A DNA stretch of 64,000 bases from Minisyncoccota bacterium (GTDB taxonomy: Bacteria; Patescibacteriota; Minisyncoccia; Phycocordibacterales; UBA918): contig JBDNIW010000001.1 of assembly GCA_041688155.1 (NCBI GenBank), forward strand, positions 7,319-71,318, written 5' to 3'. Under the pieces are notes generated by a model, which was not told the DNA's origin, ran no database searches, and worked only from the letters and a program-made list of their open reading frames with translations. The stretch's first letter is position 1. Each line of letters starts with the position of its first letter. Made by a program: the position numbers and the translations under genes. Below are positions 36,156-50,884 of this stretch, piece by piece.

Positions 36156-36555
36156 AGTCACAGTGACCCGCCCACAACAGTGGAGCGGGTCATTTTTATG
36201 CTTTATAATAAACAACATGTCACAACCACAACAATTATTAGCCGCTATCCATTCCCTCACCTAGGTATGTGCGGCGTCTGCGGATTACCGACCACTCACG
36301 TTAGTACGCTACAAGCGGCTAGCCTGATCCCGATATTTTTATTTGTATTTGGGACGTTCGTCTGGGCGTGGTGGATGGTCACTCGGTTACGGATTGAAAA
36401 CTATTTTCTCAACCGATATCAACAAATTGCTGGCCTATTACGCAGACGATAGTGGGGGCAAAATCTCTGGAGGAAAGGCTTCCGGGTTGTGCTGCACGCA
36501 GCGGAATGTGTTACGTAGCTTGCTACGTAACACACTCCATAGCATACTAAGGCTA

Positions 36556-36714
36556 ATGGAAAAACACATTCGTAAAGTCACTCGGGTCGGGAAGCGAAGT
36601 TTGTCTGTGGTGATACCGGCAGACATTGTCAGGGAGTTAGGAATACGCGAACGTCAAAAACTCGTCGTGCGCCGCTCAGGGCAAAAGATAATCATCGAAG
36701 ACTGGAAAGAGTAA
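36556..36714 (+). CDS. AbrB/MazE-family (SpoVT-AbrB) small DNA-binding protein, possible orphan antitoxin
   Basis: MEKHIRKVTRVGKRSLSVVIPADIVRELGI swapped-hairpin motif; 52 aa from the internal Met. The upstream 70 codons of the listed ORF look non-coding. Confidence 0.45.
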   Translation: MEKHIRKVTRVGKRSLSVVIPADIVRELGIRERQKLVVRRSGQKIIIEDWKE

Positions 36715-36825
36715 CCCCGGAGGTCAAGTTGCAACCAATATTAGTAATCCTACCAAGCACTACGCAGGCGGGTCCTCTAGGGATATTTTGTTTGACAAAA
36801 GTTTGACAATTGCTACACTGTATAC

Positions 36826-37074
36826 ATGAAAACAAAACCAGCGACTCAGATTGGGATGCGTGAATTCTTGCGTAATATAAAAAGCGTCAAAACCGCTGTC
36901 GGAAATGGGGAAGAGTTCGAGGTACTTGATCACGCGACGCCGGTGTTCAAAGTAGTGCCTACAAAAGCGAGCAAGAGTCATAAATACACCTTTGCTGACC
37001 TATCCCAATTCCAGTTCAACGCTGGTCCAAAAACTCTCGCCGCAGACGTAGATGGTCTGGTTTATGGCAACTAA
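36826..37074 (+). CDS. Phd/YefM-type antitoxin
   Basis: ATQIGMREFLRNIKSVKTAVGNGEEFEVLDHATPVFKVVP resembles the Phd/YefM N-terminal pattern; it overlaps the downstream PIN gene. Confidence 0.55.
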   Translation: MKTKPATQIGMREFLRNIKSVKTAVGNGEEFEVLDHATPVFKVVPTKASKSHKYTFADLSQFQFNAGPKTLAADVDGLVYGN

Positions 37075-37453
37075 AGCAATTATATTTGATAGTAATGTTT
37101 GGATTGGGTATTTTAACGTCAGTGACACCACGCACAAGCGGGCAGTGGCAGTGTTCGAGAAACACAGTGGACAGAGCATCATCTTAACCGAATACATTCT
37201 GCTCGAAGTAGCCACCGTACTCAAACAACAAATCGGTCCAGTAGCCACAAGCAGAATCATCACCGCTCTCCTACAGACCGACACGATTCAGGTGCTAGAA
37301 AGCGCAGCCTATTTCCAAGCAACCCTCCAACAATTTTTAACCACAAAAGAGAAACATCTATCGTTCGTAGACACATCGCTGTTGACCCTAGCGAACGATT
37401 TCACGATAGTGACGTTTGATAAAAAGCTAGCAGCTGCGCTGAGGGGTAGCTGA
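37064..37453 (+). CDS. PIN-domain toxin (VapC-like)
   Basis: IIFDSNVWI (first acidic residue), EYILLEV and FVDTSLL acidic positions are typical of PIN. The start is moved to MATKAIIFD at 37064, an 11-nt overlap with the antitoxin gene. Confidence 0.6.
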   Translation: MATKAIIFDSNVWIGYFNVSDTTHKRAVAVFEKHSGQSIILTEYILLEVATVLKQQIGPVATSRIITALLQTDTIQVLESAAYFQATLQQFLTTKEKHLSFVDTSLLTLANDFTIVTFDKKLAAALRGS

Positions 37454-37540
37454 AAATTGTGGCTGACCCTAATTATCTCTACGGGGGGGGGCTGTGTCCG
37501 GCGGAAGGACCTCCGGGTTCTTTTTGCTATACTGGGACAT

Positions 37541-42151: not shown

Positions 42152-44089
42152 TTAATAGTTCAGGCCAAAGTAGCGAGGGAACAATACTTCGCTGTCGTCA
42201 GTGGTAACACCAGTGGCGGTAATCGGTAACTGTTCAATATTGGCTGGCCAGGGCAGGGGTAGGGTGCCGGTAAATTCCTTTGCTCCAAACAGCACGTCTG
42301 CCACGCCAGCGCCCTCGCTACCAGGTAGCCAGGCGACTACCAGTGCATCCCAGTCGGCCATCTCCTTGGTAATAATCAGTGGTCGACCGGTGACCAAAAT
42401 CACAATCACGGAATCACTGGTTTGCTGCAGGTTTTTGATAGTTGCAAGGTCTTCTGCACTGAGGGTGGGGGATGGGTTGTCGCCCCAGCCTTCGGCGTAG
42501 GGGGATTCGCCGACTACCGCAATACCAATCTGGGCTCGGGGAGTGTCAGCGGCAAATTGTCCAGCTTCGTTGTATGCAATTATGGTCTGGGCCCCCGCTA
42601 CCTGGGTGATCCCAGCTAGAATTGAAGTAGAGTTCGGTGTCCAGTTGCCGTCGACCCCTTGCCACTCCATACTCCAGGCGCCCATTTGCACACCGACGTT
42701 ATTCGCTGCGCTACCGGCCACGTTAATTCTTTTGATTGAAGAGTTCAGTGGCAGTACGTTATTTCCATTTTTGAGGAGTACGAGCGATTGCGCAACAGCG
42801 GCGCGCGCCAGTGCGCGATGCTGTTCCTGCACGTTGTCGGTCATTGCTACCACCGCTGGTTCGCCGTCAAACAACCCAAGGGAAAACTTGGCGTACAAAA
42901 TCCGACTGACCGCGTCATCAATTCGCTTATCAGAAATGAGACCGAGGCGATTTGCCCACAACATGTGTCGCTGGAACGCCACGTAGTCAAACGGCAACAT
43001 CACCATATCGACCCCCGCGTTGATTGCGGTAACGGTCGACCAAAAATCATTACGTCGTCCCTCATGAACCCCGTACCAGTCAGACACCAAAAAGCCCTTA
43101 AAACCTAGTTGTCCTTTCAGTACATCAGTCAGCAAGTACTTTTGTCGCGCGGTGCGTTCATCGCCCCAGGTATTGAGTCCGACCATTACACTCAGCGCTC
43201 CGGCCTCTATCGCCGCTTGAAACGGTGGTAGGTAGTCTGTCTGTAGCAGCGTATCGTTGGCCATGGTCACACCTTGATCTATCCTAAAGTTCTCGTTGTG
43301 TGAAGTGTCCCAACCCATGGCACCTAGGCCCGCGAAGTGTTTGGGCGTGGCGAGTACTTGCAGCCGTTGATTATTTTCGCCGGACGCTGATTGCAACCCT
43401 TCTACGTACGCGGCACCGAGCTCGGCTACGAGTGTCGGGTCATCAGAAAACGTTTCGTACACCCGACCCCAACGGATATCTTGGGGTGCATCAAGGGTTG
43501 GTGCAAAATTCCAATTGACTCCCGTGGCAGTCATCTCGGCTGCGGTTGCCGCTGCAACCTGGCGCACCAATGCAGCATTTCCAGCGGCCCCAAACCCAAT
43601 CGCATGGGGGAACACCGTAGCGCCAGTCACGTGGGCATGCCCATGGATGGCGTCTGACCCATAGAGTAGGGGGATGCCAAGTCTTGATGACGCCGCTATC
43701 AGCTGGTACTCAGCAATCATTTGCTTCCAGCCAGCCAAGGTATTGTCAGCCGGTTTGGCACCAGAGCCACTCAAAAGTGCACCCAGCCCGTAGTCACTGA
43801 TATCACCGACAGTCTTCAGACTATTTTTCTCGACCAATGTCATCTGCCCAATTTTTTCTTCGAGGGTCATGAATGACAGGAGGTTGGCAACGCGGTCTTT
43901 ATTTGGGAGGGCCGCGTCTAGGTACGGTGCATCGGGTGGAACTGGTGTCAGAGGTGCCCGATCAAAATAACTAGTATTCATAAAAATATATCCCAGCGCC
44001 ACTACCACTATGGCCAGTAGTGCGAGGTACCCCATGGGGTAGCGGTTAGTGAGGTTAGTACCAATAGTCATTTGATTAGTATATAGCAC
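42152..44089 (-). CDS. glycoside hydrolase family 3 protein (beta-glucosidase / beta-hexosaminidase-like), membrane-anchored
   Basis: GH3 N-terminal domain motifs (GIPLLYGSDAIHG, KHFAGLG, GFKGFLVSDW) plus the GH3 C-terminal domain; N-terminal TM helix; 645 aa. Confidence 0.8.
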   Translation of the reverse strand: MLYTNQMTIGTNLTNRYPMGYLALLAIVVVALGYIFMNTSYFDRAPLTPVPPDAPYLDAALPNKDRVANLLSFMTLEEKIGQMTLVEKNSLKTVGDISDYGLGALLSGSGAKPADNTLAGWKQMIAEYQLIAASSRLGIPLLYGSDAIHGHAHVTGATVFPHAIGFGAAGNAALVRQVAAATAAEMTATGVNWNFAPTLDAPQDIRWGRVYETFSDDPTLVAELGAAYVEGLQSASGENNQRLQVLATPKHFAGLGAMGWDTSHNENFRIDQGVTMANDTLLQTDYLPPFQAAIEAGALSVMVGLNTWGDERTARQKYLLTDVLKGQLGFKGFLVSDWYGVHEGRRNDFWSTVTAINAGVDMVMLPFDYVAFQRHMLWANRLGLISDKRIDDAVSRILYAKFSLGLFDGEPAVVAMTDNVQEQHRALARAAVAQSLVLLKNGNNVLPLNSSIKRINVAGSAANNVGVQMGAWSMEWQGVDGNWTPNSTSILAGITQVAGAQTIIAYNEAGQFAADTPRAQIGIAVVGESPYAEGWGDNPSPTLSAEDLATIKNLQQTSDSVIVILVTGRPLIITKEMADWDALVVAWLPGSEGAGVADVLFGAKEFTGTLPLPWPANIEQLPITATGVTTDDSEVLFPRYFGLNY

Positions 44090-44831: not shown

Positions 44832-45019
44832 AGTAGTTTAGAACGATAGTTGAACGGATCAAATATTGAAGAAGTGTAGTGTCGAACGTACCGTGCATAG
44901 GGTGGTAAGGTCTAACAATGGTGGTTGACTCTATTTACCTAAAATAATTACAGAAAAGACTCCCAACCTCGGGAGTCTTTTCTGAAAGTGGGTAGGGTTG
45001 AAGGGAATGTTTCGGTGAT

Positions 45020-45733
45020 TTACTCCAGGTACTCGAACGTATGTGCTTGAGGAGTAGATGCGCCGGCCTTCCTCAAAACAGCATTTATTGGTTGTAATGA
45101 TGCAAAAGCTGTAACTACATCTGTTTTGATATGTTTGCTATTTATGTCTGTGTCACTTAGCCCGCAGCCGATTGTGAAATCTTTGTGGCGTAGCAAATCA
45201 ATTCCGGGATGGGCAACGTCATATCCCTGGGGCGCTTTTTTAAGTTTATACGCGTCACTGAGTCCCTGTGGAAAATAGTATTCTAATGTGGGGTCAGACA
45301 ATAGTTTTTGTATTTTTTTATGGTGGGTTGCAATATATCCCCGCATAGTGTCTAGATGTAGGCGGTCGGGCATCTTGATACCTCCACCCATGAAAGATTT
45401 GTCATCGGGCGCAATCGCAAAATAATATACTGGTTCAGTTGGGTCTTTTATATCGGCTGAAATAAGTCCTGACAACGTTGTTTTATATTTAGCTTTGTTT
45501 CTAGAAAAGCGAGCGTCTCGATGCAGTCGAAATACTTTTATTGTCTCGATGCCTTTTTTATGATTACGTGCGATTGCAGTATCAAATGTTATGACTTCAT
45601 CCCGTATCTGTCCCAGCAGCTGAGTGAATTCCTGTCTCAGCACATTGTATTCATCTTTATGTTCCTCGTACCACTCTTTGTTATTGTTTTGTTTGATACC
45701 TCGCAGGAAGGTAAGTAGTTCAGAATGTATCAT
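45020..45733 (-). CDS. DUF2461 (TIGR02453) family conserved hypothetical protein
   Basis: N-terminal LTFLRGIKQNNNKEWYEEHKDEY matches the characteristic DUF2461 opening; 237 aa. Confidence 0.6.
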   Translation of the reverse strand: MIHSELLTFLRGIKQNNNKEWYEEHKDEYNVLRQEFTQLLGQIRDEVITFDTAIARNHKKGIETIKVFRLHRDARFSRNKAKYKTTLSGLISADIKDPTEPVYYFAIAPDDKSFMGGGIKMPDRLHLDTMRGYIATHHKKIQKLLSDPTLEYYFPQGLSDAYKLKKAPQGYDVAHPGIDLLRHKDFTIGCGLSDTDINSKHIKTDVVTAFASLQPINAVLRKAGASTPQAHTFEYLE

Positions 45734-45941
45734 ACGTTTTTTGTTAGCCTGGCTACCGATGTAGTGTTGCAGCTGGTGTGTAGAACTATATCAGTTTGAG
45801 GGTATAAACCCAGTCTGACTAAAAATGAGAACTTACTGACGGAGGCCTTGCCTCCGTAGGGACGCATGTGAAGTGTTTGGAAGCTGTTGCAGTTGAAGCT
45901 TTAATTGACCTGGTTGCTAAGTAGAGTGATACAATTATTTT

Positions 45942-46472
45942 ATGGGAAAAGAACAATTAAAAATAGGAGTCACAATATTAATCACGTCAATTGTAGTTGG
46001 TTTAGCTGTTTATTACTTCACTAACCCTAAGATAGGGAAAGAAAATACTGACACAAAGCAGCAACTCAGTACTTATAATCAAAGCTCCAAAGAATATGCT
46101 GTAATGAGTCGAGAGCTTTGGAGTGCGTTTTCGTGTTCTACTTGGGCTTCCCATTTTAAAGACGGAGAAGAGGCCGAAAGATTGTTCTTGTTTGGCTATG
46201 AACAGGGGGAGAAATTCCTAGGTGCCACACGTGCGGAAAAAATTACTTACGCAGATTTTCAATCAGAGGTTCCAATTGGAGTTAGTTTGTCACTAGCAGG
46301 TCCCAACAATGATTTTGTCCTTGGTGTACTTTATACAAACGCACAGGAGGACGCGTTGGAGGAAGTGTTCTACACTAATTATGATAGAAAAAAACTTAAT
46401 TCTGATGATTTACAAAAATCTATTGCAGAAAAGAAGTATCGTGAAGGAAATTGTCAGTTGATTGGAAGATAA
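45942..46472 (+). CDS. hypothetical membrane-anchored protein (low-GC islet gene 1)
   Basis: N-terminal TM helix IGVTILITSIVVGLAVYYF then a ~150-aa soluble domain; markedly AT-rich codon usage versus the neighbours. Confidence 0.5.
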   Translation: MGKEQLKIGVTILITSIVVGLAVYYFTNPKIGKENTDTKQQLSTYNQSSKEYAVMSRELWSAFSCSTWASHFKDGEEAERLFLFGYEQGEKFLGATRAEKITYADFQSEVPIGVSLSLAGPNNDFVLGVLYTNAQEDALEEVFYTNYDRKKLNSDDLQKSIAEKKYREGNCQLIGR

Positions 46473-46552
46473 AGTAGGAATGGCTCCTGACCCCATTTAT
46501 AAAGCTTCACCTAGGACTCTCTTAGGTGAAGCTATAAGAATATAATCTAACT

Positions 46553-47155
46553 ATGGAACATAAAGAACAATTTACTAAATTATTATCGGAAATAGAGAAT
46601 GACAGCTCAGTAAAAGAGTCAGTAAAAGATTGGGGAGTTGCACTGCTCAAAAAATTGATTCGTGGCACTGAAATTGTAAATCGTGAATATGATTATTATG
46701 ATAATGGTTATTACCTTGGTTATTTAATGATAGCTGCTCAAAGGATTGAAAATACACTTGTTGGACTGATTGAAAGCCTAGAAAAGTTACAAGCACAGGA
46801 AGAAGTACGGGAAGTGAAAATGCCAAAGCTTAATCGTCCACTAGGCTGTCTTGCAGATATTCTTGAAAAATATATCGAATCAGAAATTATTAAGGAATTA
46901 AGAGATTTCACAGAATTTAGAAACGAAATAGTACATAAAATTTATATTGTTCAATCTACATCGTTATCTGAAATAGAAAACTCTATCCCAAGAAGTTACG
47001 ACCAGGCTAAAATTCTTGCTTTACAGACAAAAATTATGAAGCTACAAGCTTTGGTCCTCAAAAAAATACACACCGATAGCGAAGTGTATATCGATGCAAT
47101 TGAAGCCAAGATTGACGAGGAACTTACTGATCAAGTATCACTAAAATTAAAATAA
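46553..47155 (+). CDS. hypothetical alpha-helical protein with an Rx4H (HEPN-like) motif (low-GC islet gene 2)
   Basis: EFRNEIVHKIY fits the HEPN R-x4-H(-x-x-Y) signature. Predicted all-helical, no TM; AT-rich; flanked by hairpins containing a repeated CCTAGGACT motif (46517, 47176). Confidence 0.45.
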   Translation: MEHKEQFTKLLSEIENDSSVKESVKDWGVALLKKLIRGTEIVNREYDYYDNGYYLGYLMIAAQRIENTLVGLIESLEKLQAQEEVREVKMPKLNRPLGCLADILEKYIESEIIKELRDFTEFRNEIVHKIYIVQSTSLSEIENSIPRSYDQAKILALQTKIMKLQALVLKKIHTDSEVYIDAIEAKIDEELTDQVSLKLK

Positions 47156-47340
47156 AACCCTGCTGATTCTAAGTTTCGCCTAGGACTGTACGCTTCGCCT
47201 AGGTCAAGCATTGTCATGCCTACCATACGCTCAACTTGGAGGTTGAAATAAAGTAGGTGGGTGTACGTATGAAATAACAACTAACATTGCTTGATTTGAT
47301 GTCTTGTATAATTTGCTTATAAATAGCGCTGCCACTCACT

Positions 47341-49008
47341 ATGCAATTCTTTAAAACCCACAAAATAAAATTTGTAATTATTCTCATATTGGCTGGTGGC
47401 GGATATTGGTATACCCAGTCTGATCGGACAGAAGAACCAACGGTAGCAGCGGTAGTGGTTGAACAAGTGGGGCGGGGTGATGTGACTTCAGGGATTGAGA
47501 CGACTGGTGAGATTGTGGCCGCTCAGAAACTTAATCTGGACGTGTATAAACAGATTTCTCGGATTGATCTGGTGAACGTTATTAATGGCGGTACGGTCGC
47601 TGCTGGTGATGTGCTGTTTACCTTTGATGCGAGTAACGCGCTGGTTGCGGTTGAGTCATCTAGAGTAGGGGTGCTGGGGGCAGAGCTCACCCTTGAGAAT
47701 CAACGGGCAAATGTGACCGATCCAAATAGCACCATCCGAACGCTTGAAAACGATATCGTTGCATTAGAAGCGGACATCGCGCAAGCTGGGGTAGATAAAA
47801 ATCGGGCGTATCGGGCGTACCTCAACGCGAACTTGGAACCCGTACCAGGTACGAGTAACACAGTAGATAAAGTGAAGCCAACCATATCTGGTTTGTACAC
47901 AGCGACCAACGAGGGGGAATACCGAGTGAGTGTGTATCGGTCTGGAGCAGACTCTGGTTACTCATATCGAGTTGGTGGGCTGGAGTCTAATACGGAATCT
48001 GTGTTACTAGGAGTACCATCTTTGCTTGGACAATCAGGACTTGAGATTACCTTCCCTTTATCAATAGCCACTGGTGATGCTTGGATTGTTGCGGTTCCAA
48101 ACATCCACGCTCCAGAGTATGTTGCTACGCTTGAATTATACGAGGAGACAATTACTAGTCTAGAGCTACTGGTGGTTGAGGCTGGAGTCAGTATCCAAAA
48201 CAAGCAGCAAGAAATAGAAGATATCTTGCAAACGGACACGACTCAGTTCCGTGATCTTGGGGTGTCCCAAGCCCAAGCTGAATTAGCTCAAGCGCGAGAG
48301 CAGCTTTCACAGAACTTTGATGTTGTGCAGGAGCAAAGTATAGTCGCACCGTTTTCTGGCACGGTTGAGGGCATGGAAAACGTAGTAGTTGGGGCGTCCC
48401 CAACTCGTGATACCAACGACCCTATCACCCTTGGTACCCTTATTTCTGATGATTTTTTAGTGACGTTTTCACTCAGTGCTGTGGATGTGGCAAAGGTCTC
48501 AGTGGGGCAGTTGGTGTTGGTGAACATTACTTCCTTTCCAGATATACCAACCCTTGAGGCTACTATCAACGAGATTAGTTCACTACCAAATAGTGAAGGG
48601 GTAGCGCAGTATGCGGTGCAAGCGTTAATCAACTTACCACCAGAAGCAACAGTCCAGCTACGTGAGGGATTATTGGCTGATATCGAGATTGTGCAAGAGG
48701 TGGCCGTAGATGTAGTGCGAGTCCCTAGTGCAGCGATAGTCTACGAAAACAGACAAGCACAAGTCCGCGTGCTGACCGACCTTACCCCAGAGCAACAAGA
48801 GACAATCACCACTTTGAATATTATTCGAACGATGTCTGATCAGTCGGTTGGGTTTATGGTCGATGTTGAGATTGGTGTAGCGGGCGCATTTTATAGTGAA
48901 ATCATTGGTGGTCTAACGGAGGGGCAATACGTAGTGGTTGGTGATACTGATGATACTGAGTCAGCCCTCAGTGAATCGAGGCGAGGTGGTCGGCCAAATA
49001 ATGATTAA
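47341..49008 (+). CDS. efflux-pump periplasmic adaptor (HlyD/MacA-like membrane fusion protein), long form
   Basis: N-terminal TM anchor, coiled-coil and beta-barrel/lipoyl-like segments; first gene of a three-gene ABC exporter operon; 555 aa. Confidence 0.6.
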   Translation: MQFFKTHKIKFVIILILAGGGYWYTQSDRTEEPTVAAVVVEQVGRGDVTSGIETTGEIVAAQKLNLDVYKQISRIDLVNVINGGTVAAGDVLFTFDASNALVAVESSRVGVLGAELTLENQRANVTDPNSTIRTLENDIVALEADIAQAGVDKNRAYRAYLNANLEPVPGTSNTVDKVKPTISGLYTATNEGEYRVSVYRSGADSGYSYRVGGLESNTESVLLGVPSLLGQSGLEITFPLSIATGDAWIVAVPNIHAPEYVATLELYEETITSLELLVVEAGVSIQNKQQEIEDILQTDTTQFRDLGVSQAQAELAQAREQLSQNFDVVQEQSIVAPFSGTVEGMENVVVGASPTRDTNDPITLGTLISDDFLVTFSLSAVDVAKVSVGQLVLVNITSFPDIPTLEATINEISSLPNSEGVAQYAVQALINLPPEATVQLREGLLADIEIVQEVAVDVVRVPSAAIVYENRQAQVRVLTDLTPEQQETITTLNIIRTMSDQSVGFMVDVEIGVAGAFYSEIIGGLTEGQYVVVGDTDDTESALSESRRGGRPNND

Positions 49009-49013
49009 TCAGT

Positions 49014-49694
49014 ATGACTACACCTGTCGTAGATCTACAACACATCAACAAAGAATTTAAGCTGAGTGCAGAGGTGTCTGTTACGGTGTTGCGTGATGTT
49101 TCGATTCAAATTCAATCAGGTGAAATGGTCGCAATCCTCGGACCCTCTGGATCAGGAAAGTCGACCTTGATGAACTTGATTGGGTGTCTTGATATACCAA
49201 CCTCTGGTGATTACTTTTTTGCTGGGACGAGAGTTAACGATTTATCTGATGACGAGCTGGCAGAGTTACGTTCGTCTGATATTAGCTTTGTCTTTCAGTC
49301 ATTTCATCTCCTCTCAGGGAAAACAGTCTACCAAAATGTACTATTACCATTGCTATACCAGCGATCATTTTCTGGTAGTAAAGACGAAACAGTCAAAGCT
49401 GCCTTGCGACAAGCCCAGCTTGAAGAAGAGCAGTGGTACAAAAAACCAAACCTACTCTCAGGTGGACAGCGACAACGAGTTGCGATCGCACGCGCGTTAG
49501 TTGCTAAACCAAAACTACTACTGGCTGACGAACCAACTGGAAACCTCGATTCCAAAACGGGAGTCAATGTCATGGAAGAACTCAAAACCCTCAATCGTGA
49601 ATATGGAACGACGATTGTAATCGTAACTCACGACGAGAGTCTGGCTGAGATGGTTGATCGGGTGATTACTATTAAAGATGGAGTTGTTTCCTAA
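49014..49694 (+). CDS. ABC transporter ATP-binding protein (MacB/LolD/FtsE-like)
   Basis: Walker [13 protein letters not shown] signature [15 protein letters not shown], Walker [13 protein letters not shown]; 226 aa. Confidence 0.85.
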
Positions 49695-49699
49695 ATTAT

Positions 49700-50884
49700 A
49701 TGAATCCGTTTAATGTCTTACGAGAAGCCTTGCAGGCGCTACGAAGCAATGCGCTACGTTCATCACTGACAATCATTGGAATCGTGGTGGGTATATTTTC
49801 AGTGACCGCCATGCTGGCGTTAGGGGAGGGGTTGTCTGGCAATATTGCCGAACGGTTTAATGCGTTCACTAGTGGTGATATCACCATCGTTGGTGATATT
49901 ACTGAGCAAGATCTCAGTTGGCTGCAAGACCGACCGTACGCGTCAGTCGTGGTTGGGTTTCAGTCAGCTGGTGGTGTCGACACTATTTTTGCCGGGACAG
50001 ATTTCAACCCGTCAGTACAAACAATCTTGGGTGAGTACGAAGCGATAACAGGATTTGAGCTTATCTCAGGAAACGCTTTTGATTTTACCGATGCAGAGTT
50101 TGCTGAGCGGGTCGCTATTGTCGACGAAGGATTTCTAGATAGCGTCGAGACCGATAGTGGGGCAGATGCCAGTAGTGGAATCGTGATACTTAACGGCCAG
50201 CGCTTCACAATCATCGGGGTACGCGAGGGAGGTAGTGGTGGGTTTGGCCGTCGGGGAGATGGTGCAATTATCGTACCGTACGCGGCAGCCCTGGGGGTGG
50301 TGACCAATACTACCCAGTTTTCTTCAGTCGGGATGAACCTAAATGACGTAGCTTATTTTGAAACCTACTCAAAACATATCCTGACGTCTCTCAATGCCTC
50401 TCGGTATGTAGAGCCAGATAGTGACGAATTCTTTGGGGTGAGTAGTGCGCAGGAATTTATCAAAACTGCCCTTGAAACAACGGCGATGATCAGCGTGTTT
50501 CTAGGGGTGATTGGTGGTATTGCATTGTTTGTGGGTGGGATTGGAACCATGAACATGATGCTCACCACAGTAACTGAACGGACCAAAGAAATTGGTTTAC
50601 GTAAAGCGGTTGGCGCTCGCAATAAAGACGTTCTGTTACAGATTTTATTTGAATCAGTCTTGCTGACGTTGCTCGGGGGAGCGATTGGGATTGCTTTGAC
50701 CTACGGGGTGGCATACATCGCGAACCGGGTACTCGCTGACAATGATTTCTTGAGTATCTCCATGTCTGGAACTGTAGTCTTATACGCCGTCATCGTTTCA
50801 TTTTGTGTTGGGATTATTTTTGGATTGTACCCAGCCCGAAATGCTTCGAGACTTCAGCCAGTAGACGCGTTACGAAGTGACTAA
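49700..50884 (+). CDS. ABC transporter permease, FtsX/MacB-type
   Basis: N-terminal TM helix, large periplasmic domain, C-terminal FtsX 3-TM bundle; 394 aa. Confidence 0.75.
   Translation: MNPFNVLREALQALRSNALRSSLTIIGIVVGIFSVTAMLALGEGLSGNIAERFNAFTSGDITIVGDITEQDLSWLQDRPYASVVVGFQSAGGVDTIFAGTDFNPSVQTILGEYEAITGFELISGNAFDFTDAEFAERVAIVDEGFLDSVETDSGADASSGIVILNGQRFTIIGVREGGSGGFGRRGDGAIIVPYAAALGVVTNTTQFSSVGMNLNDVAYFETYSKHILTSLNASRYVEPDSDEFFGVSSAQEFIKTALETTAMISVFLGVIGGIALFVGGIGTMNMMLTTVTERTKEIGLRKAVGARNKDVLLQILFESVLLTLLGGAIGIALTYGVAYIANRVLADNDFLSISMSGTVVLYAVIVSFCVGIIFGLYPARNASRLQPVDALRSD

Follow-up and report, generated by a model that had tools for sequence, protein, structure and literature searches.

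HEPN RNases are metal-independent enzymes that leave 2',3'-cyclic phosphate ends. Members of the superfamily are recognised by an R-x4-6-H motif at the end of helix 3, in which the residue after the arginine is typically N, D or H, and by a second signature in helix 2, an upstream acidic residue typically found as E-x3-[KR] (PMC3710099). DUF3644 is listed among the HEPN families by Anantharaman et al., as is the integron-cassette family represented by PDB 3jrt (PMC3710099). Here we describe an islet at positions 45861-47211 of a 64-kb stretch of contig JBDNIW010000001.1 from a Minisyncoccota bacterium (the whole stretch is called the window below). It carries two genes: gene 1, for a predicted membrane-anchored exported protein, and gene 2, for a HEPN-like protein. 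A preliminary description had read them as a toxin or defence pair flanked by possible operator hairpins. We consider the best explanation, with a probability of roughly 60%, to be that they are two independent single-gene modules in a hot-spot insert rather than an operon, and that gene 2 is a stand-alone HEPN member.

The features of gene 2 are as follows.
46553..47155, + strand: gene 2, coding for a 200-aa all-helical HEPN-like protein (family alignment A1, AlphaFold2 model)
46748-46750: E66 of gene 2
46919-46921: R123 of gene 2
46934-46936: H128 of gene 2

The family of gene 2 is small, with 24 representatives among 1.84 billion in an exhaustive search; a word-indexed search gave 2. No match to gene 2 was obtained among plasmids and phages by tblastn, and nothing meaningful in PHROGs. 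In the 25-sequence family alignment A1 (24 full-length, one truncated), R123 and H128 are conserved in all 24 full-length members, the truncated sequence being the sole exception, and E66 is invariant (25/25), with K or R at +4 in 20 of 25 sequences. The residue after R123 is polar in 21 of 24 (K in 10, N in 5, R in 3, D in 3) and I or V in the other three; gene 2 has N. R-x4-6-H, a polar residue after its arginine and an upstream E-x3-[KR] in a helix are thus all found in the family. The segment EFRNEIVHKIY, which the preliminary description had matched to the HEPN R-x4-H as it occurs in HepT, is indeed present with its fixed R and H, but the likeness to HepT is inexact, because the tyrosine stands at H+3 and is not conserved.

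From the single sequence, AlphaFold2 (AF2) modelled gene 2 with a predicted local distance difference test score (pLDDT) of 49. With A1 as input, the model is all-helical, as had been proposed, with pLDDT 90.8 and a predicted template-modelling score (pTM) of 0.85; its helix 54-84 contains E66, and its helix 112-132 has R123-H128 close to the end. Below the Pfam thresholds, gene 2 matches HEPN_Cthe2314 (PF18730; E 0.0024, residues 46-165 on model positions 40-156 of 174) and HEPN_LA2681 (E 0.026), and in PADLOC it matches Csx1 (E 0.0015), in the HEPN part only (model 94-148 of 152). Members of A1 match the Pfam models Cthe_2314 (4), DUF3644 (3), HepT-like, LA2681 and Apea, with a best E of 5.5e-4, and in PADLOC Csx1 (best E 4.1e-5) and CARF_HEPN_CSX3 (7.8e-5), where the R-x4-H region is matched. 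Foldseek searches of the gene 2 model against PDB and BFVD returned no significant match; Csm6 chains (6tug) head the PDB list at E 0.13 with a TM score of 0.25, and AbiV appears at E 3. The profile and structure checks suggested earlier have given consistent weak matches to several HEPN families, none of them at threshold and without a significant fold match. We consider the HEPN fold and ancestry of gene 2 quite probable, and gene 2 would represent a rare, previously undescribed family within the known HEPN superfamily.

The most likely role of gene 2 is that of an RNase of HEPN type that stands alone and acts as a toxin or in abortive infection. E66 together with R123-N-x3-H128 would form a metal-independent RNase site, and the protein presumably dimerises like other HEPN proteins. 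From these features we infer a toxin-like or abortive-infection-type RNA-cleaving effector, and RNase activity, dimerisation, toxicity and control are all part of that inference. Relatives of gene 2 lie next to known or candidate defence genes in three of seven independent contexts (loci compared with the window are designated by L and a number), namely Ppl (E 9.5e-40, L010), a HEC-05/GmrSD-like gene (E 1.2e-50, L014) and PDC-S11 (E 5e-149, L016), while the remaining relatives adjoin a methyltransferase, APH-type kinase or ATP-grasp gene. This tendency toward defence neighbourhoods agrees with the earlier remark that HEPN proteins recur as defence effectors. In L010 (2395-6074), a distant relative of gene 2 (P0071) is followed after a two-base gap by a 110-aa open reading frame (ORF) and, 33 nt further on, by the Ppl-type PHP-ATPase defence gene. 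This arrangement may be an operon linking the gene 2 HEPN family to Ppl.

The islet and its other elements are listed here; REP denotes repetitive extragenic palindrome, MFE minimum free energy and GC the content of guanine plus cytosine.
45861..47211, no strand: strain-variable islet, missing from the close relative L018; the 1.35 kb of lowest GC in the 64-kb window
45839..45860, + strand: GTAG-type palindrome ACGGAGGCCTTGCCTCCGTAGG at the left islet junction; 8-bp G+C-rich stem, z -2.6; sole copy in the window
45866..46499, + strand: gene 1 segment ('cassette') with promoter-proximal leader, gene 1 and terminal REP-type core; matched in L141
45942..46472, + strand: gene 1, coding for 176 aa, predicted to be anchored in the membrane at its N-terminus and to expose a conserved extracytoplasmic domain of ~130 aa, which has two invariant Cys
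46480..46500, + strand: REP-type 22-nt core ATGGCTCCTGACCCCATTTAT, directly after gene 1; only copy in the window
46503..46534, + strand: strong hairpin with a 14-bp stem (region MFE -26.1 kcal/mol, z -3.7), a diverged member of the CCTAGG family
47171..47209, + strand: two tandem half-copies of the CCTAGG palindrome family (direct-repeat family D1), ending at the right islet junction

Both islet ORFs are confirmed on the + strand (45942-46472, 176 aa; 46553-47155, 200 aa), and their composition is foreign to the window. The islet has 36.0% GC against 48.4% window-wide, and only 0.08% of windows of 1351 nt within the 64 kb are as AT-rich. Among the 53 genes of the window, gene 2 has the lowest GC (32.5%; 23.9% at third codon positions; z -3.5), followed by gene 1 (37.7%, z -2.4). 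The islet had been described as more AT-rich than its flanks, which holds in that it is the lowest-GC 1.35 kb. GC drops to 33-40% across ~45400-47400, with ~50% to either side. The upstream DUF2461 gene is likewise low in GC (41%), so that the upstream edge is less sharp than stated at that time.

The location is also strain-variable. L018, a 74-kb metagenome contig reached by exact look-ups of the flanking proteins, aligns by blastn with window 45011-45860 (the DUF2461 gene and upstream DNA) and with 47212-49974 (the macA-like gene onwards) at 92.6-93.5% identity, whereas no L018 alignment is obtained between 45860 and 47212. At the same spot, the window carries 1,351 bp with gene 1 and gene 2, and L018 carries 7,110 bp of other genes (L018 2764-9873), including a RelB/YafQ toxin-antitoxin pair and PEP-utilizer/PPDK_N-type genes. 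Since the flanks are near-identical and the cargo differs, the location is a hot spot at which near-identical strains hold different cargo. A compositionally foreign, strain-variable islet is thereby borne out. Our explanation is that the insert is specific to the strain and occupies a recombination hot spot, rich in repeats, between the DUF2461 gene and the macA-like efflux gene.

The surroundings of the islet vary as well. A GH3 beta-glucosidase-like gene (42152-44089, in segment 42034-44064) is missing from L018, which has ~100-240 nt between RecQ and GST; this segment is a further strain-specific insertion, but its GC is above average (53-57%). L018 has additional ORFs between the DUF2461 and GST genes. 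It also carries beside the DUF2461 gene a 310-nt fragment (L018 10813-11121, also L019 1008-1316) that matches window 47371-47701, in the 5' part of the macA-like gene, at 75% identity, which suggests a past rearrangement or duplication at the hot spot. The missing GH3 gene, the added ORFs and the macA-like fragment fit a plastic region.

Gene 1 and gene 2 are two unrelated single genes and not a system. Their families do not co-occur in any of 13 contexts (6 of gene 1, 7 of gene 2); tblastn of both islet proteins against 17 loci found no locus holding both, and the contexts L138-L141 are also without gene 2. The closest copy of gene 1 (L141 1193-1826) is 90.5% identical in nucleotides over exactly window 45866-46499. 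Core repeats enclose this copy, a Y1 transposase gene resembling the REP-associated tyrosine transposases (RAYTs) adjoins it, and other DNA, not gene 2, follows it. Between the islet genes stand a REP-type repeat and the strong hairpin, and the genes differ in GC (37.7% vs 32.5%). The earlier pairing of a HEPN protein with a membrane protein therefore fails on the 13 contexts and on the L141 segment. The preliminary description had held that its reading would fall if gene 2 lacked HEPN similarity and the pair were conserved as ordinary core genes of native composition. The composition is foreign, the pair is not conserved, and gene 2 has sub-threshold profile similarity to HEPN families, with no significant match in the structure search.

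Before each islet ATG (45929-45941; 46541-46552) no Shine-Dalgarno sequence is seen, and a -10-like hexamer (TACAAT and TATAAT, respectively) lies 6-7 nt upstream. These hexamers are compatible with separate, nearly leaderless transcripts of gene 1 and gene 2; a consensus promoter scan found no full sigma-70 site upstream of the islet genes.

Residues ~8-26 of gene 1, as read from the sequence by eye, are hydrophobic, in agreement with the single N-terminal transmembrane helix and extracytoplasmic domain proposed before; the conserved domain is now put at ~130 aa. In alignment A2 (mean column identity 58%), C65 and C171 are invariant in the family, which suggests an extracytoplasmic disulfide. 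The 54 relatives (42-90% identity) include a 'Candidatus Paceibacterota' metagenome-assembled genome (MAG) and a Parcubacteria MAG. Gene 1 itself has no Pfam, NCBIfam, PADLOC or PDB match, and a 28-sequence profile likewise has no Pfam or PDB relative. The neighbours in its six distinct contexts are all different (tRNA, HTH/arsenic-type operon, where HTH stands for helix-turn-helix, mur/dcw cluster, TsaD, RecG and others). Its wide spread, as a single gene, among Paceibacterota-like genomes of small size points to an envelope role that has nothing to do with gene 2. Gene 1 would then be a lineage-conserved, membrane-anchored exported protein that neighbours gene 2 by happenstance.

The palindromes of the islet had been taken as hairpins flanking the genes and as possible operators. 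The flanking claim is half right, because the inter-gene hairpin is strong and a tandem pair does follow gene 2, but the latter (47171-47209) is not significant as a hairpin (z -0.67). The two elements do share a motif, as had been noticed: the 17-mer AAG[CT]TTC[AG]CCTAGGACT has three copies, at 46502, 47171 and 47190. CCTAGGACT occurs twice in the 64 kb, both times in the islet, where 0.38 occurrences are expected in the window, and four of the window's seven CCTAGG sites fall within 46217-47203. The consensus of the CCTAGG family, AAGCTTCGCCTAGGC-AAG-GCCTAGGCGAAGCTT, is found in intergenic positions beside unrelated genes in L018, L039, L047 and L089, and this argues against the operator role. 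The homology to L018 resumes at 47212, right after the tandem element. At the left junction, ACGGAGGCCTTGCCTCCGTAGG, a member of a sister family with GTAG at its end, is conserved in L018, with 4 copies including both insert junctions, and L089 has 1; GTAG-tagged REPs offer a comparison for such GTAG-ended palindromes (PMC3733652). The core, CCTAGG and GTAG elements are thus best regarded, from their distribution, as lineage-wide junction repeats and not as operators of gene 2. At the module junctions they are probably recombination or transposition substrates, or RNA 3'-end hairpins.

The 22-nt core deserves separate description. No further copy of ATGGCTCCTGACCCCATTTAT is present in the 64-kb window at up to 3 mismatches, and the core is found at both ends of the L018 insert. 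A metagenome scan gave more than 118 loci, and in ~50 the core carries the extended AAT[AG]G prefix; since this prefix is missing from about half of the exact 16-mer matches, that half is probably due to chance. Copies of the core in inverted orientation enclose a RAYT-like Y1 transposase gene in L042, in L101/L114 and, twice over, in L136; in L125-L127 the 3' copy is seen at the 3' end of a RAYT-like gene. The 3' copy overlaps the RAYT stop codon. The transposase of L042 scores 83 bits on NF047646 (REP-associated tyrosine transposase; cutoff 80), the others 58-79 bits, compared with ~20 bits on the IS200 model. Since the core flanks genes that score as REP-associated tyrosine transposases, we class it as a REP-type repeat as in the REP/RAYT literature (PMC3116915, PMC3337134, PMC5581495). 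Its folding is weak, with a 6-bp A/T-rich stem and z -0.23.

Other identities of the core were rejected. In a tRNA 3'-end remnant the T-arm would be unpaired, the hexamers and spacing do not fit a sigma-54 or sigma-70 promoter, and the arms are too dissimilar for a dif/Xer site. As an attC site it fails because conservation runs 23 nt past the GTTGCAC heptamer, as seen by eye in the alignment and with no dedicated attC model run. There is no Rfam match to a riboswitch or ribozyme, and the 340-470-aa neighbours that might have suggested a TnpB/IscB guide-RNA end are housekeeping genes (T2SS-F, MurG, PGK, Mur ligase). A 165-nt 'structured repeat' upstream of many cores, considered as an RNA with compensatory changes, is actually a small MazE/AbrB-type ORF. 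Nothing was found in the literature on the core sequence.

Beside full cores, tandem partial reiterations of the 3' half, (CCTGA)CCCCATTTAC, stand in 2-4 copies (L095 1616-1680, L049 135-200, L042 7600-7645, L136 13620-13700, L018 9770-9830), which could be footprints of repeated Y1 cleavage and ligation, or of slippage. In another group of organisms, paralogous coxS-like (2Fe-2S subunit) genes have the core 10 nt ahead of their start codon (L058 7496, L059 3829, L083 2328, L093 3457 and 4307), a hint that the core can sit in 5' leaders and not just 3' of genes.

Within the islet, the modules are bounded by repeats: gene 1 with its core occupies 45866-46499, and gene 2 lies between CCTAGG elements at ~46500-47211. 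A second repeat-bounded module of the window, 36550-37478, starts with a 54-aa MazE/AbrB-type ORF (36550-36714; PF04014, 30 bits) that is 82% identical in nucleotides to repeats in L141 and L075, and continues with a Phd-like/PIN toxin-antitoxin pair (36826-37074 and 37052-37453) and a core variant, GAAAATTGTGGCTGACCCTAATTA (37455-37478). In L075 (27-3331; the same DNA in L063, related DNA in L047, L032 and L089), at least four paralogous MazE/AbrB-type mini-genes stand ~1 kb apart, with a REP-type core ~20 nt beyond the end of each. Between these mini-genes lie a ParE-type toxin pair, a 158-aa ORF, a Ymh (PF09509) HEPN protein and several 72-aa HTH-like ORFs. L047 matches L075 at 98% identity as far as a core, past which the two diverge.

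Several observations weigh against our explanation. No model reaches a curated HEPN threshold (best PF18730, 18.3 bits vs a cutoff of 27.1), and neither the A1 profile nor four single family members found a HEPN chain in PDB by sequence. Gene 2 itself has V instead of K or R at E66 +4. Clear defence contexts are seen for just three of the seven relatives, and no antitoxin-like small ORF or regulator is identifiable near gene 2, which is unusual for a toxic HEPN RNase. With one core and no RAYT gene found in the 64-kb window, the mobility of the modules is deduced by comparison only. The first two of these points, and the lack of a significant structural match, would also be expected if gene 2 were an unrelated helical bundle in which R-x4-H and E-x3-K arose by convergence or chance, and an hhalign comparison of A1 with one Ymh HEPN protein, which aligned only the FRN...H motifs at a non-significant probability of 0.6%, is in line with this. 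Yet at least six HEPN-family models give sub-threshold matches, with reported spans covering the motif region, both motifs are invariant, in the correct order and in the correct helices, and Csm6 chains head a Foldseek list that also contains AbiV. We therefore regard a non-HEPN origin as rather improbable. It is somewhat easier to imagine, though still unlikely, that gene 2 has the HEPN fold but is not toxic, serving as an RNA-processing, regulatory or ligand-binding module whose location in the island is incidental. Housekeeping roles are known for some HEPN families (PMC3710099), no antitoxin or partner is conserved, and the methyltransferase, APH-type kinase and ATP-grasp enzyme among the neighbours of relatives would suit such a role. 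The patchy and very rare distribution (24 representatives), the strain-variable location and foreign composition, the defence neighbours in 3 loci and the fully conserved catalytic motif speak for something else: taken together, rarity, variable site, defence neighbours and motif fit a conflict-system gene better than a housekeeping gene.

Two further readings keep gene 2 as a toxin and supply it with a partner. An antitoxin might have escaped recognition, either as an RNA from the flanking repeat and hairpin DNA or as a protein encoded elsewhere in the genome. The RelB/YafQ pair in the L018 insert at the same site, the Phd/PIN pair in the comparable repeat-bounded module of the window (36826-37453) and the structured repeats on the flanks of gene 2 make this thinkable. 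It is very improbable, however, given that no plausible small ORF adjoins gene 2, its relatives share no small neighbour, the flanking repeats belong to generic lineage-wide families and no Rfam match was obtained. Gene 1 is the other candidate partner, in a two-gene defence or toxin system whose membrane protein would sense or neutralise the HEPN RNase, with the CCTAGGACT sites as operators. In its favour, the genes are neighbours that run in the same direction, share a low GC and belong to one strain-specific insert. Against this stand the 6 and 7 contexts in which the two families are never together, the L141 segment with gene 1 and no gene 2, and the 80-nt spacer occupied by a REP-type core and a strong hairpin. 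Moreover, the bulk of gene 1, with its invariant Cys pair, is predicted to be extracytoplasmic, whereas gene 2 has no signal or transmembrane segment, and CCTAGG palindromes lie beside unrelated genes in other genomes. We judge this pairing very unlikely, and the proposal of a HEPN and membrane-protein system is to be dropped.

Defence and toxin systems are poorly charted in bacteria of the candidate phyla radiation (CPR) type. Should gene 2, as a stand-alone HEPN member, be an active RNase, the HEPN superfamily would gain a minimal family without a partner from such bacteria, one that current Pfam, NCBIfam and PADLOC models miss; one would then also ask how a HEPN nuclease on its own stays harmless. 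The different modules at the same spot in near-identical strains, with their ends at RAYT-associated repeats, make the spot a concrete site at which the movement of cargo genes by REP/RAYT systems can be tested. RAYT activity and plain recombination at the repeats are both candidates that may move the modules. A bolder idea, which we hold to be a long shot on the present sequence comparison, is that REP-type cores recognised by RAYT-family Y1 transposases would delimit gene modules exchanged at Paceibacterota-like (CPR) hot spots, an integron-like cassette economy that would have delivered gene 2 as a single-gene HEPN abortive-infection effector. The modules exchanged in this manner may include toxin-antitoxin pairs, MazE-like genes, HEPN RNases and exported proteins, and the transposase may be a domesticated, single-strand enzyme.

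Compared with the described HEPN proteins, gene 2 resembles HEPN_Cthe2314, LA2681 and DUF3644 in its helical domain of ~150 aa, its invariant Glu (E-x3-[K/R]) and its R-[polar]-x3-H near the end of the third core helix. The sub-threshold match to HEPN_Cthe2314 spans 117 of 174 model positions. At the bit score given above, gene 2 nevertheless falls outside that Pfam family and into its own cluster of 24 representatives, and it adds an N-terminal helical segment of ~50 aa and a C-terminal helical tail. The Csx1 and CARF_HEPN_CSX3 models match the R-x4-H region of gene 2, and Csm6 is the top Foldseek match, not a significant one; gene 2, however, has only 200 aa and no Pfam match to CARF or another sensor domain, and it is therefore not a Csx1/Csm6. 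With HepT-MntA and AbiV it would share, by analogy, the nature of a small HEPN RNase that is encoded on variable or mobile DNA and presumably acts as a toxic, RNA-cleaving effector, and AbiV structures are among its Foldseek matches, at insignificant scores only. Unlike HepT-MntA, it has no MNT or other conserved partner gene beside it (Pfam, NCBIfam, PADLOC and a small-ORF check). The R-x4-H-x-Y of HepT is also absent: gene 2 has RNEIVHKIY with the tyrosine at H+3, and the family has K, R or H at H+1 followed by L or I at H+2 (position 130 L or I). Lacking both this motif and an MNT neighbour, gene 2 is not a HepT.

The setting of gene 2 resembles that of the integron-cassette HEPN, as a lone HEPN gene in a small promoter-proximal module with structured repeats at its bounds, within an array of small variable genes that include toxin-antitoxin pairs. 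It differs in that no integrase-sized ORF is present in the islet and no integrase Pfam match is found among the called genes of the L018 insert. Moreover, the bounding repeats are not attC-like; the core is instead the repeat that flanks RAYT-type Y1 transposase genes. To our knowledge, REPINs (REP doublets forming hairpins) have not been described as marking the ends of gene-carrying modules. What is shared with REP/REPIN-RAYT systems is a short extragenic repeat, placed in inverted orientation around a single Y1 transposase gene and also present as solo and inverted-pair intergenic copies, together with GTAG-ended palindromes at the left junction of the islet and at both junctions of the L018 insert. 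The differences are the low copy number of one core in the 64 kb, the weak 6-bp stem, the 3' copy lying over the RAYT stop codon and the location of the repeats at the ends of gene-carrying modules. The REP/RAYT repeat architecture is thus of a known kind, here in an unusual, cargo-bounding arrangement.

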